A stretch of DNA of 64,000 nucleotides from an uncultured delta proteobacterium (lineage in GTDB: Bacteria > Desulfobacterota > Desulfobacteria > Desulfobacterales > JAHEIW01), in the NCBI GenBank assembly GCA_963706575.1, contig CAVPNL010000018.1, forward strand, positions 128,001 through 192,000, in the 5' to 3' direction. The translations under genes and the position numbers were made by a program. Below are positions 13,723 to 57,085 of the stretch, one piece after another. Numbering within the stretch: position 1 is the stretch's first letter; each line of letters starts with the position of its first letter. The notes under the pieces were generated by a model that was not told the origin of the DNA, ran no database searches, and worked only from the letters and a program-made list of their open reading frames with translations.

Positions 13723-14934
13723 TCAGATCCTGCATTCCCAAAATATATTCTGCCGCTCCTCCACATCGCAGAGCATCGATTCGATTTGGCCGTCTCCTTT
13801 TGCCTGGGCGATTCCGGCAGAAACTGCAAAACACAACCCGCTGCGTTGTTCGGAAAGATCAAAGATGGCATCCGTATCCAGGTTGCGTGACAGCTTGTTG
13901 CAAAACATCCCGGCCTGATCGACATCCGTATCGGGTAATACCACCATAATCTTGTTCATGTCATAGCGAAAACAGATATCCGTGAGGTAAATATTGTTCT
14001 TTACAAAATGGGCAAAATTTCTCAGGGCGGTTTGGCCGGCCACATGACCGGCAATCCGGTCAACGTCCTCCAGGTTTTCGACTGAAAGCAGAACAATGGA
14101 AAAAGGTCGGTGATGCCGCTGTAACCGGAACATTTCCCGGGTCAACCGTTTCTGACCCAGCGACTGCGAGGCAACCCCGGTCAATTCGTCATGCGGGCTT
14201 TCCAGCCCCCGGATATAACTGCGCACGACAGGATCAGCGGTCTGCTGTATTTCTTCCGGAGACCCTTCAAAACGGATTTTTCCTTCATTCAGCATGGCAA
14301 TCCGCTGGGAAATAAAAAACACATCGGGAATTTCATGGCTGACGATGATACCGGTAAATCCAAATCGTTTCTGGTAGTCGGATATCATGCTGTGAACTGC
14401 AGTTTTGCGAATGGGATCAAGGCCCGTGGTGGGCTCATCAAATAACACAATTTCCGGATCCGTGACCAGGGCTCTGGCCAGGGCGACCCGTTTTTTCATT
14501 CCACCTGAAAGCTGGGACGGGTATTTTTCCTCGACATCAAACAGATCCAGCTGATGCAGCTTATCCTGAACCCGATCCTTGATCTCTGTTTCAACATATG
14601 CAGTGTTTTCCATGAGCGGTAAAGCGATATTTTCAAAGACATTCAGAAAATCAAAAAGTGCGGTGTCCTGAAATACATAACTGAATTTTCGTTTCAGAAC
14701 TCTGCGCTGGTCTTTTTTCATTGCAGCCAGAAGTTTTCCTTCAAAAAGCACCTGGCCCGAATCCGGCGTTAACAGACCGATGATGTGCTTTAGCAGTACA
14801 CTTTTCCCCGTGCCGCTCTGGCCGATAATGGAAGTTATTTGCCCGCGGTAGATGCTCAGGGTGACCCCATCCAGCACACAATTTGAGCCAAAGCATTTAA
14901 TAATATCTTTTATTTCAATAAGTGGTTGATCCAT
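13723..14934 (-). CDS. mlaF: MlaF-type ABC ATPase with a C-terminal degenerate GGDEF-like domain
   Basis: GQSGTGKS, LSGGMKKR and FDEPTTGLDP, then DELTG...GHVAG...RYDMNKIMVVLP...SAGIA. Confidence 0.88.
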   Translation of the reverse strand: MDQPLIEIKDIIKCFGSNCVLDGVTLSIYRGQITSIIGQSGTGKSVLLKHIIGLLTPDSGQVLFEGKLLAAMKKDQRRVLKRKFSYVFQDTALFDFLNVFENIALPLMENTAYVETEIKDRVQDKLHQLDLFDVEEKYPSQLSGGMKKRVALARALVTDPEIVLFDEPTTGLDPIRKTAVHSMISDYQKRFGFTGIIVSHEIPDVFFISQRIAMLNEGKIRFEGSPEEIQQTADPVVRSYIRGLESPHDELTGVASQSLGQKRLTREMFRLQRHHRPFSIVLLSVENLEDVDRIAGHVAGQTALRNFAHFVKNNIYLTDICFRYDMNKIMVVLPDTDVDQAGMFCNKLSRNLDTDAIFDLSEQRSGLCFAVSAGIAQAKGDGQIESMLCDVEERQNIFWECRI

Positions 14935-18330: not shown

Positions 18331-19605
18331 TCAACGAATCCGCTTTTTCTTTCGACGTGTGATGAAAAAATAACACAGCCCGGCTACAAACAATGAGGGC
18401 ATGGAGCCGCCGATGGGATATTTCATAAGAGCAATCAGTTCATATACAAAAAATCCACTCGCCCAGCAGATTAACGCAATGCCATTAAAGCCTTTGGCAT
18501 ACCAGTATTTACCCTCCGGCTGGTAAAGGTCCTGCGTGCTGATCCGGCGGTCTCGAATAAAAAAATAGTCGGTCAGAACAACCCCAAACAGGGGCACAAA
18601 CATGGCGCCGATCAGAAAGAGGAAATTTTCATATTGTTCCATTGGAAAAACCAGCGCAACCAGTATGGAAATAATGCCCGCCGCCCAGACAATGCTTTTT
18701 GAGCTGAATCTTTGAGAGATATTCAGCGTTGAGCAGGCCGCGGAATACACATCCGGAAAACCGGTGGTGATGGTAGAAAACACCACCATGGCCAGGGCCG
18801 GAACCGCCAGGCCTATTTTGCCCATAAGCTGCAAAATTAATGTGCCTGGATCACTTGCTCCGGCAACCAGGGTTGCGGTTAAACCCAGCGCATACATCCA
18901 TGATGAAATCAGAAAGTAGCCCAGCCAGGTATTCCAGAAGGCCGGAGCGGCCCTTTTGGAGAACCGTGAGTAATCCGCCACTAGCGGCATCCAGGAAATA
19001 GGCATGGCGATGACCAAATCCAGGCCAATCATAAATGGCATATTCTGCGATTTGACCTCAAAGACATCGCTTCCAAATTCATTGACTGACACACCACTCA
19101 TCAGCAGGATGACCAGCAATAGTCCGATAACCGTCATTTTCTGCATCACGCGCCAGATCGGGTTGCCCGTCATCTGTGCCCATAAGAGGGTTCCCAATCC
19201 TATTGCGACAATCCAGAACTGGTTGGATGCCAGAATTCCCCCTAGTGGTTTGCCCAGCATGGCACCGGCCCGGCCGCCGATGATCAGCATAATCGAGGCC
19301 CAGCCGATTAGTTGGATAATGTTTAAAACAGCTGCCAGATTTGAACCGCGAATACCGAATGATGGCCGAACGGAAACCATTGACATAATGCCGTGTTCAG
19401 ACCCGATAACCCCCCCCAGTGCCATAAAGGTATTCCCGATAATGTGCCCCAGAAAAATTGCCAGGATACCCATCCAAAACCCCATGGGCGCTAAAAATCC
19501 GCCGGCCCAAATTTCCGCCAGAGATATGGCCACCCCGGCCCACAATAAAAAATAGTCCAGACCGCTGAGACTGCGTTGTCCGGCGCCAATCGGTTGAATG
19601 TCCAT
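18331..19605 (-). CDS. cytX: CytX-like NCS1 permease, putative hydroxymethylpyrimidine transporter
   Basis: LWAGVAISLAEI and MPISWMPLVADYSR; about 12 TM; TPP riboswitch upstream. Start reset to MDIQP because the longer ORF runs through the riboswitch. Confidence 0.85.
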   Translation of the reverse strand: MDIQPIGAGQRSLSGLDYFLLWAGVAISLAEIWAGGFLAPMGFWMGILAIFLGHIIGNTFMALGGVIGSEHGIMSMVSVRPSFGIRGSNLAAVLNIIQLIGWASIMLIIGGRAGAMLGKPLGGILASNQFWIVAIGLGTLLWAQMTGNPIWRVMQKMTVIGLLLVILLMSGVSVNEFGSDVFEVKSQNMPFMIGLDLVIAMPISWMPLVADYSRFSKRAAPAFWNTWLGYFLISSWMYALGLTATLVAGASDPGTLILQLMGKIGLAVPALAMVVFSTITTGFPDVYSAACSTLNISQRFSSKSIVWAAGIISILVALVFPMEQYENFLFLIGAMFVPLFGVVLTDYFFIRDRRISTQDLYQPEGKYWYAKGFNGIALICWASGFFVYELIALMKYPIGGSMPSLFVAGLCYFFITRRKKKRIR

Positions 19606-19708: not shown

Positions 19709-19738
19709 CAAAAAAAGCCACCCGGATAGCGGGCGGCC
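19709..19738 (-). terminator. Attenuator terminator of the TPP riboswitch
   Basis: GCCGCCCG-CTATC-CGGGTGGC-TTTTTTT immediately 3' of the aptamer. Confidence 0.85.
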
Positions 19739-19749
19739 TGATCGCGCAT

Positions 19750-19850
19750 TCTTCCTCCGCCGGCATTATCCGGATCAGGTTCAACGGTCGGACTCACAAT
19801 AAGATGTCAGAGTCCCTCTCAGCCCGGTCTTTCCGAGCTCCCGACACACA
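19750..19850 (-). ncRNA. TPP riboswitch
   Basis: GGGAGC...GCTGAGA...GACCGTTGAACCTGATCCGGATAATGCCGGCGGAGGAAG matches the THI-box consensus. Confidence 0.93.
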
Positions 19851-19996
19851 GCAAAGTTAATTTTCAGTCTGCAAATTATAAATAGGGGTCTAACCCGAAC
19901 CTGTCAAGCAATTTCACGGCTGGATGTTTGTTTTCCTGAGTCACTATGATATATAACCTGTAGCTGCATCTCGTTTTACGGCAGGAAGACAGGTTT

Positions 19997-20449
19997 ATGG
20001 CAATTTATAATTTAGACGGCTTATTGGACAAATACAGTGGTGAATTTCTGATTCTGGAGTTTAATCATCTCTTTATTTCATCGTCCATCCGCGAGGAAGT
20101 CTGGCTGCTTCAGCGCAAAAATGATTCGCCGTTGATCGATAAAATCGTGAGGGCCGCCAGAGAATTTAATATCCATGAAGTCAGCGATGAAAGAGATTTC
20201 GAGACCTATTCCGGCGGACAAAAAGCCATTTTAGCCTGCCTGCTGACACTGGCGCTGATTGGCGACCGCAAAATCCAGGGCCTCAAATTATTGCTAAATA
20301 ATATCCTGGACTCCGTGAGTGAAGAAAACCGGTCAAAATTGGTTCAAAAATTCGAAGAAATCCGTTCAACTCACAATATAAGGCTGTTCACCGAAAAGGA
20401 TGGCCACATCCAGGAGATTTTTACAACGAATGGAAATCCGCAAGGGTAA
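19997..20449 (+). CDS. Truncated ABC-ATPase-like protein with signature motif only
   Basis: HLFISSSIREEV, YSGGQK and a degenerate Walker B (LLLNN); no Walker A. Confidence 0.7.
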   Translation: MAIYNLDGLLDKYSGEFLILEFNHLFISSSIREEVWLLQRKNDSPLIDKIVRAAREFNIHEVSDERDFETYSGGQKAILACLLTLALIGDRKIQGLKLLLNNILDSVSEENRSKLVQKFEEIRSTHNIRLFTEKDGHIQEIFTTNGNPQG

Positions 20450-20909
20450 ATATCGTTTAGATGACCGCAACCTGAATTTTGATATCGTCGCTGACCTCAA
20501 TTTTAATGTTAGCGGCAGCCGATTTTATTTCAGGGGCGGCAACGGTTTCGGCAAGACATCCTTTCTGGAGAAAATTATCATTCCCGCCCTAAAGGCTGAT
20601 AACCTTCCCTATTTATATATCGGTCAGGATATTCGGACGCAGCTTTATACCTTGCGAGCGCTTCTTTCCATCCAGGGATTTAAAGTATCCGATACGGATG
20701 AGGTTGAACTTTTAAGGCTGTGGATTGATCAGGGCCAATCGGCAAGCGTCCTTATACTGGATGAGTTTGATAAATATTTCCCCGATTATGGATTTATCTT
20801 TGACTGGAGTGATGCCTTTATCCGGACCTACATCATCGTAACCCATCTGGCGATGAATCGCTGTGAGGCGGTTGCGAATAATTATCCGAATTTGCAACGT
20901 GAGGTTTGA
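20430..20909 (+). CDS. Short ABC-ATPase-like protein with Walker A/B but no signature motif
   Basis: GGNGFGKT, YIGQD, VLILDEFD and IIVTH. May extend to TAA at 20961 if a 1-nt indel lies near 20890. Confidence 0.75.
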   Translation: MEIRKGKYRLDDRNLNFDIVADLNFNVSGSRFYFRGGNGFGKTSFLEKIIIPALKADNLPYLYIGQDIRTQLYTLRALLSIQGFKVSDTDEVELLRLWIDQGQSASVLILDEFDKYFPDYGFIFDWSDAFIRTYIIVTHLAMNRCEAVANNYPNLQREV

Positions 20910-20953
20910 ATTGATCAACATCGATGGTCAACTCAAGAATGTCAGGGTGAGAA

Positions 20954-21568
20954 ATGAATAATATCGTCATTTTAAAACTTGGCACCATATTCATCATCAT
21001 CCTCTCCTTTTTTTGGCTGTTTGTTTTCGGCCCCTTTTATGACAGCATCAGCATTCAACTGGCTGTTTTTATCGTTGTCATGGGATGGAATGCGTTGCGG
21101 TTTTCGTTTCAAGAAACCATATCATTGCTGAAGTTCTGTTTTCCATTTGTATTGAGTTTGTTTGTTTTCGGACTTATCTTTCACTTTATACAGCTATTCG
21201 GCAGAACGGATTGGTTGCAGGACACACTCATTAAATGTTTGGTGTTCCCGAGCTCATTGATTTTTTTAAAAATCCTGTTGACCTATATTACCTATCTGGA
21301 TATCCTTAACCTTCCGATTTCAATGAAAAAACGAATTGGCCTGATCACAATGAAATCTGCATTCCAAAAAGGGGAAAAAATATTGCGCCGATTTTCCTGG
21401 TATCTGAATACCTATTCTGACCTGCAATCCGGCAACAGAATTAAATCCGAATTGAAAAAATATGCCTGCCTTATTATCGCCCTGTATTTGTATCTTTATG
21501 AAGAAATTGAAAATTCAAATCGATTACTAAAAAATCGATATCAGCATCTATACGAGGTCAACGAATGA
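20954..21568 (+). CDS. Membrane protein, putative divergent ECF T component
   Basis: Four N-terminal hydrophobic helices and a basic amphipathic C-terminal half; lies between the ATPases and the S component. Confidence 0.6.
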   Translation: MNNIVILKLGTIFIIILSFFWLFVFGPFYDSISIQLAVFIVVMGWNALRFSFQETISLLKFCFPFVLSLFVFGLIFHFIQLFGRTDWLQDTLIKCLVFPSSLIFLKILLTYITYLDILNLPISMKKRIGLITMKSAFQKGEKILRRFSWYLNTYSDLQSGNRIKSELKKYACLIIALYLYLYEEIENSNRLLKNRYQHLYEVNE

Positions 21569-22068
21569 AAAATGTTAAAATTGCTTTTATCGCCCTAACA
21601 GTTGTTGCTGCCCTGATCACCCTGTTTATCAGGATCCCGCTGCCCAGCAGGGGCTACTTCAATTTTGGAGATGTGGCAGTGGTGTTCTCGGGTCTGGTTC
21701 TGGGAAGCCTGGCGCAGAAAAAAAATTTCTGGTGGGGTGCAGGAGCCGGGGGTATCGGTTCGGCCCTGGCGGATATCATCGGCGGATTCGGAATGTTTGC
21801 GCCGATTACATTAATTGCCAAGGGGGCTGAAGGCGGATTATGCGCGCTGGCATCCGGCCGGCACAAATTCAGCCGGTGGATTTTAATTCTGCTGGGCGGC
21901 GCTTCGATGGTCGCATGCTATTTTATTGCTGAAGCATTAATGCCGAACATCGGGCTTCAGGGGGCGGTATCGGAAATCATCCCCAATCTGATCCAGGCCG
22001 GCGGCGGCATTGCCGGCGGCGTCCTGGCGTTTACCGCTTATAAAAAAATAGTAGGTACCGAAAAATAG
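21565..22068 (+). CDS. ECF transporter S component
   Basis: IRIP...GYFNFGD, GGIGSALADIIGG, APITLIAKG and IPNLIQ. Confidence 0.88.
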   Translation: MKNVKIAFIALTVVAALITLFIRIPLPSRGYFNFGDVAVVFSGLVLGSLAQKKNFWWGAGAGGIGSALADIIGGFGMFAPITLIAKGAEGGLCALASGRHKFSRWILILLGGASMVACYFIAEALMPNIGLQGAVSEIIPNLIQAGGGIAGGVLAFTAYKKIVGTEK

Positions 22069-56997: not shown

Positions 56998-57085
56998 GCT
57001 CGAAAAGGCAAACCACCTGAAAGGGTGGGACGCAAAGCCACTGGCCTTAAACCGGGGGGATGGAAAGGCAGCAGGGCTGCCGGGC
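56998..57085 (+). ncRNA. c-di-GMP-I (GEMM) riboswitch
   Basis: AAAAGGCAAACCACCT-GAAA-GGGTGGGACGCAAAGCCACTGGCCTTAA...GGCAGCAGGGCTGCC with P1 gctcg/cgggc. Confidence 0.9.

Follow-up and report, generated by a model that had tools for sequence, protein, structure and literature searches.

The four genes at positions 19997-22068 (+ strand) of the window, by which we mean the whole 64,000-nucleotide stretch of DNA analysed here, probably encode a group I ECF-type micronutrient importer whose two ATPase subunits are cut reciprocally, leaving a single predicted composite ATP site. ORF1 (A) retains the ABC signature and lacks the Walker motifs, ORF2 (B) retains the Walker motifs and lacks the signature, and a divergent membrane protein (ORF3, T) and an S component (ORF4, S) complete the A-B-T-S operon. 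The reciprocal motif loss is conserved among homologs, as is the gene order. A sequence-only reading of this DNA had proposed a streamlined single-site ECF motor, a proposal which genomics and modelling now support, the latter as prediction.

Table 1. Features of the A-B-T-S operon in window coordinates.
Feature	Position	Strand	Remarks
ORF1 (A)	19997..20449	+	signature-only ABC/EcfA-derived subunit, 150 aa; hhalign 94% to EcfA/CbiO
E33-E34 of A	20093..20098	+	counterpart, in the alignment, of the acidic pair of EcfA (first helix of its helical subdomain)
ABC signature TYSGGQK of A	20204..20224	+	contacts ORF2 N38, G39 and T43 in the model
Dead Walker B (LLLNN), then D-loop remnant (ILDSVS), of A	20288..20320	+	residues 102 and 105-111 in the model interface
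ORF2 (B)	20430..20961	+	Walker-only subunit; 176 aa in homologs, 159 aa here
Walker A GGNGFGKT of B	20535..20558	+	G36, N38, G39, G41 and K42 invariant in 91
Q-loop Q66 and ECF Q-helix-position Q71 of B	20625..20642	+	Q in 83/91 each; aligns with FQNPDDQL
Walker B ILDE of B	20754..20765	+	D111 91/91, E112 90/91
H-loop His139 of B	20844..20846	+	90/91
Extra base putting B out of frame	20885..20890 (about 20889-20890)	+	from comparison with homologs
ORF3 (T)	20954..21568	+	divergent membrane protein, putative EcfT role, 204 aa
N-R-Y, single conserved arginine motif of T, end of last helix	21533..21541	+	residues 186-199 touch A in the model
ORF4 (S)	21565..22068	+	HmpT/PdxU-like S component, 167 aa

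The genes overlap by 20 nt (ORF1 and ORF2, the start of B being set from that of its homologs), 8 nt (the homologous ORF2 stop and ORF3) and 4 nt (ORF3 and ORF4). Nothing significant was found for ORF1, ORF2 or ORF3 of the window in Pfam or NCBIfam, ORF4 being the sole gene of the four that Pfam names. Narrow profiles likewise retrieved no relative from the PDB. A promoter scan at the operon gave no informative signal (11 against 6.8 +/- 2.7). Contigs from RNA runs span parts of the operon, and such contigs are no proof of transcription.

From the translation of ORF1 it was evident that FISSSIREEV and TYSGGQK are present and that LLLNN stands in place of Walker B, as the sequence-only reading had described. 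The N-terminal beta-subdomain, Walker A, the Walker B acids and the H-loop histidine are gone, and the helical subdomain is retained. When A was aligned by hhalign with EcfA/CbiO, represented by 19 CbiO-type proteins of relatives, the match ran from the Q-loop to the helix after the D-loop. The Q-helix consensus is absent, with the downstream acid kept. Among the 56 aligned A homologs the most strongly conserved part is SGG (S72 in 56, G73 in 54, G74 in 56, followed by Q/E75 in 56), and E34 is acidic in all 56. The AF2 model of A has a pLDDT of 90.7, and ABC nucleotide-binding domains (NBDs) make up nearly all of its matches to solved folds; the best Z, 8.9 (rmsd 3.9-4.4), is modest and close to the background of the tool. 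Since the NBD match begins only at about residue 40, the N-terminus of A sits at the place of the P-loop. The A profile matches ABC chains, including the C-halves of SMC/Rad50 heads. No longer A homolog (309-2000 aa) was present among 8000 scored, which is weak evidence. In one sequence, P0312, A seems to run on into B through a frameshift.

The translation of ORF2 holds GGNGFGKT, GQDIRTQL, ILDE and VTH and no signature. The protein aligns with EcfA/CbiO along the entire domain save for the signature helix, which is deleted (hhalign, 98%), and most of the helical subdomain is missing. Its conservation was read from 91 full-length sequences among the representatives found with the B profile, of which there are 113 at 50% identity, most of them 160-200 aa long; the glutamine of the Q-helix (X-P-D/E-X-Q) is kept in 83 of the 91, and the proline is absent. 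B was modelled from P0124, an intact homolog 99% identical to the ORF2 of the window, with an AF2 pLDDT of 94.6. The model matches ABC NBDs at Z 10-11, including the EcfA structures 4hlu and 4huq (Z 10.5, rmsd 3.3-3.9), and the B profile matches ABC chains. Foldseek lists KaiC first, above ABCE1, at a TM of about 0.5. With such KaiC/RecA-like proteins as its top matches, B could be an ATPase that works without a signature, with A serving only as a non-catalytic adaptor to T. We regard this as quite unlikely: VIA ranks ABC NBDs first for B, and the conserved SGG of A touches the P-loop of B in the complex model described below.

The Q-loop and the Walker-B strands occur in both ORFs separately, which bears out the earlier argument that this is not one frameshifted gene. 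The same observation bears on whether A and B might complement each other in cis as one split NBD, so that two AB units would form an ordinary two-site motor. Such an arrangement would agree with A keeping the helical subdomain that B has largely lost, and with the match of the A profile to the C-halves of SMC/Rad50 heads, which are split NBDs themselves. However, the Q-loop, Walker B and the core strands that follow would then be duplicated in one domain, the modelled arrangement is head-to-tail, and the Walker domain of the fused relatives discussed below retains its helical region but has still lost the signature. We consider a split NBD unlikely and prefer two reciprocally cut subunits that share one site.

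The motifs that the earlier reading assigned to ORF2 were all found, but it overlooked a frameshift. An extra base puts the gene out of frame, so that the B of the window ends after 159 aa at a stop at 20907-20909, and the homologous C-terminal 23 residues go on in another frame to 20959-20961. Among the matches listed, 104 of 120 B homologs are 176 aa long, and the window B is the only short one among the 15 listed of the 18 members of its 90% cluster. One 91%-like contig is a base short at the insertion site, and the genes neighbouring the operon in this assembly are full length. The extra base is either an assembly error or a strain mutation, and with ORF2 frameshifted this single copy may be dead or mis-assembled. 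In another member of the family (P0267), the B domain shares its chain with a 320-aa part that weakly matches outer-membrane beta-barrels, which is probably a read-through or a mis-assembly.

For the family as a whole, the picture is one of maintenance. Near-length homologs number 328 for A and 309 for B, from which it follows that neither is a chance ORF. In a regular-expression search of the ORFs at the loci, Walker A was found in 0 of 74 A homologs and the signature in 0 of 105 B homologs, so the homologous four-gene operons, whose comparison the sequence-only reading had suggested, keep the reciprocal loss. The order A-B-T-S is common to loci of the Desulfobacterales, the Desulfomicrobium type and the Cloacimonadota type. 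At the 16 GTDB loci, wherever the flank suffices, A lies ahead of B in 15/15, T follows in 16/16 and S in 13/13. A metagenome pattern scan returned at least 120 stretches, 80 of them with flanks and 61 of these B-positive; among the 61, some of which are duplicates, A is in place in 53/54, T in 50/50 and S in 45/45. The sole locus without A in that count is L061 (-), on a short contig, in which A is broken by a single-base frameshift with its signature intact. The other 19 of the 80 flanked loci hold other ATPases and not B. Pairwise dN/dS medians among 12 Desulfobacterales sequences are 0.19 for A, 0.17 for B, 0.12 for T and 0.06 for S; all four genes are under purifying selection. The two frameshifts, in the B of the window and in the metagenome A of L061, are what one would expect if these ORFs were decay products of an ordinary ECF operon. 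Hundreds of homologs of the same length, the narrow size range of the 113 representatives, the purifying selection and the spread over several phyla argue against this so strongly that we give decay next to no credence, and for the family it is excluded.

Among 61 relatives, 12 carry B, and within the genus 11 of 21 do. The titled GTDB records with B are Desulfobacterales/Desulfobacteraceae MAGs, and named carriers elsewhere are Ca. Syntrophosphaera, Desulfomicrobium escambiense (the WP_028578330.1 cluster), D. salsuginis and one Allosphingosinicella MAG. No match was found on plasmids. The B, T and S profiles uncovered no further split operon in phylum samples of 400 genomes, with only 7-9 candidates scored per genome; since Desulfomicrobium does have the split operon, this null does not amount to absence.

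ORF3 had been called T-like, a label that sequence comparison does not bear out. Pfam CbiQ (PF02361) is matched by 0 of the 39 aligned T members, the hhalign probability to EcfT is under 4%, and the T profile found no relative in the PDB. The Atlas gives two leads: one cluster, at 0.96, bears the automatic name cobalt transport protein, and in another, at 0.87, 30% of the members carry CbiQ. The arginine of the N-R-Y motif, R195, is R in 35 and K in 2 of the 39, and there is no conserved arginine at the end of the middle helix in a manual register. In four loci of the Ca. Syntrophosphaera (Cloacimonadota) type (L042, L053, L074 and L094), T and S form one ORF of 366 aa. The amphipathic C-terminal helices of T dock on A in the model, and T may fill the role of EcfT.

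The complex was modelled from B, T, A and ATP, with S left out. It scored 0.87, against 0.61 for the best control (T replaced), with 93% of contacts agreeing between runs and a partner pLDDT of 86. Among solved pairs, 116 of 157 attain the mark for this score, and among mismatched pairs 2 of 215 do; the mark is a rough guide here, where our own alignments and a ligand were used. The predicted arrangement is head-to-tail: N38, G39 and T43 of B touch S72-Q75 of A, and the interface also has B 112, 115-118 and 139-140 and A 102-111. The complex prediction that the earlier reading had called for thus joins the Walker A of ORF2 to the signature of ORF1; since dimers of NBDs are a textbook arrangement, the pass may owe more to resemblance to solved ones than to binding. 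Residues 186-199 of T dock on A 18-19, 24, 27 and 37-38. The available parts of two structural papers describe an acid in the first helical-subdomain helix of solved ECFs that binds a T arginine (PMC6828968, PMC4820897), from which we infer a possible Arg-Glu bridge between R195 of T and E33/E34 of A. The model names E33, not E34, at the T interface, and the closest named contacts of R195 are L18 and L38 of A.

The predicted model therefore contains an ABC-type site, with Walker A and B from one subunit and the signature from the other, and at the second site the P-loop is absent altogether. A working cycle would begin with ATP binding by ORF2, after which the SGGQ of ORF1 would close over the nucleotide, one ATP being used per closing. 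The helical subdomain of ORF1 would hold the end of the last coupling helix of T, with its only conserved arginine, so that the closing movement could be passed via ORF1 to T, which in turn would make the HmpT-like S subunit topple or reset. From what is known of ECFs, we infer that closing on one ATP could move the helical subdomain of A, the coupling helices of T and hence S. The N-terminus of ORF1, at the place of the P-loop, may provide a fixed contact that replaces the lost site.

That an S component follows, as the sequence-only reading had it, is confirmed: ORF4 matches PF07155 at 71.1 bits (cut-off 26.7) and the S chain of 4HZU, L. brevis HmpT, at E 7e-13. A profile of S alone found no relative in the PDB. 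In the available part of PMC4860826, HmpT is reported to bind pyridoxamine via E41, H84, Q87, Y120, N140 and Q143. Three of these six are identical in S (Y120, N140 and Q143), whereas the other three differ from the HmpT/PdxU2 pyridoxamine components: E41 is D36, H84 is K86 and Q87 is E89. The residues D36, K86, Y119, N141 and Q144 are common without exception to S, to the related S' described below and to stand-alone S homologs, and E89 is found in 47 of 52. In two other families of the phylum the same pocket residues are found in stand-alone S components (L231-L244), with no ATPase or T within 1.5 kb. The substrate is likely a B6-vitamer- or HMP-like heterocycle.

In the genus, the upstream neighbour of the operon is a divergent cytX under a TPP riboswitch (7 loci) or a co-directional ABC importer (4 loci), which we take to be thiZXY-like. 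At one locus (G007, L185 5415-8012, -), a TPP-headed three-gene ABC importer takes the site of cytX and ends 82 nt before A. The window itself has a divergent cytX at 18331-19605 (-), above the cut-off for TIGR02358. Ahead of it and divergent from the operon lies a TPP riboswitch at 19734-19854 (-; 53.9 bits against a cut-off of 54.3), alongside a terminator-like stem at 19739-19715. In G000, at 92% completeness, pdxJ is present and thiC and pdxS went undetected. The neighbours in other lineages are housekeeping genes. A gene of about 155 aa, deaminase-like and presumably tadA-like, precedes the operon at 18 Cloacimonadota-type loci (L037, L045, L053, L072, L101, L112 and others), and in five of those scanned a tRNA lies between the two.

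The same data bear on whether the module, with its one site, might be something other than an ATP-driven importer, such as an ATP-gated facilitator, an S-release device or a ligand sensor. T is too divergent to be assigned by sequence, and the S fold is used by receptors too, going by the title of PMC11109136. On the other hand, no conserved signalling gene lies beside the operon among its clustered neighbours, the S pocket is invariant, and B retains its catalytic Glu and His in 90 of 91 sequences. A role other than import is improbable, and all four alternatives taken together hold a small, if appreciable, share of the probability, the greater part falling to the one-site importer.

The system resembles ECF transporters such as L. 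brevis ECF-HmpT (4HZU; group I, A-A'-T-S) in its four subunits, its homologous S and its dedicated operon. Moreover, A and B align with EcfA/CbiO, B keeps the glutamine at the Q-helix position, and T-S fusions occur. However, the solved ECF ATPases have every motif in both subunits, as stated in the available part of PMC4820897, and here each subunit has half of them in only 150 or 176 aa. EcfT has two coupling arginines, according to the part of PMC6828968 available; the T of this operon has one, in a sequence unrecognisable as EcfT. Because two defining ECF features are missing, namely two complete ATPases and two T arginines, we class the system as an ECF-derived variant and not as an ordinary member.

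In having one consensus site, built from the Walker motifs of one side and the signature of the other, it is also like the asymmetric ABC exporters Pdr5, CFTR, MRP1, ABCG5/G8 and TM287/288 (PMC3971661 and PMC6533308, available parts). In those exporters, as far as these sources describe them, the NBDs are full-size and the second site is degenerate through point changes; that of TM287/288 still binds nucleotide. Here, in contrast, A has physically lost its P-loop and beta-subdomain and B its signature helix, and the setting is an importer-type ECF. The parts of the literature available also report that a single active site suffices in HisP (PMC3971661, PMC6533308) and that ECF-FolT2 uses its two sites unequally (PMC10368641). 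Degenerate second sites in ABC exporters are thus already known; the earlier reading had not recognised the motor as described, and in the literature searched, outside which subscription reviews and supplements fall, we found no description of a half-ATPase or of an ECF with one site, the other deleted. The deleted site in an ECF-type importer therefore appears to be new.

A parallel system, absent from the sequence-only reading, came to light in the relatives. When these 61 genomes were searched for S, 28 had exactly one match each: the 12 B-positive genomes have an S of the window type, and the 16 others have S'. Upstream of S', 14 of the 16 have an ATPase domain with Walker motifs and a membrane protein, T'; in one of the other two the contig starts inside S', and in the last neither gene lies within 8 kb. 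The Desulfobacterales loci (L216-L229, L256-L283) encode a fused ATPase of about 440 aa, then T' and S'. Its N-domain has LSGGE and lacks Walker A, Walker B and the H-loop, and its C-domain has GxNGxGKS, FQD..Q, DEP and SH with the signature replaced. This one-site pattern is found in 29 of 29 aligned fused proteins, for which no NCBIfam name scored above its cut-off. The fused form thus resembles the split form in having signature-only before Walker-only in the same order, followed by T' and by an S' whose pocket residues are the same, but it is one chain and less shortened.

The fused form is present in 47 of 301 genomes of the order and in none of the five B-positive genomes listed there; in this sample the two forms are mutually exclusive. 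In one genome (G002) it lies next to gdhA-yhhN, which are neighbours of the window operon as well. By hhalign, A matches the fused N-domain at 95.6% and EcfA at 94.4%, and B matches the fused C-domain at 94.3% and EcfA at 98.1%. T and T' have no profile similarity, and in most T' the middle helix keeps an R-E-E motif. In the tree, S and S' are separate long branches, with a support of 75 for the join. With trees of long branches, both a common origin and convergence of the two forms are compatible with the data. The pocket residues common to S and S' suggest that both systems probably serve the same function. As a tentative proposal, one-site ECF motors of anaerobic bacteria may form a separate class, in which the second site was removed outright twice (fused, about 440 aa; split, 150 + 176 aa) with the same S family, giving the smallest ABC motor, with one ATP and one coupling arginine.

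Whether one or two ATP are used per ABC transport cycle, and what the degenerate site does, are open questions according to the available part of PMC3971661. A natural transporter without a second site would make stoichiometry and coupling directly testable in a complex of about 700 residues, and homologs are found in cultured Desulfomicrobium species. Three unnamed protein families missed by Pfam gain an annotation, and one genus offers two interchangeable designs. Elsewhere in the window, a c-di-GMP-I-GGC riboswitch lies at 56998-57085 (+; 68.6 bits), and an MlaF-like ABC ATPase of 403 aa at 13723-14934 (-) has a C-terminal extension that, read by eye, is degenerate GGDEF-like.
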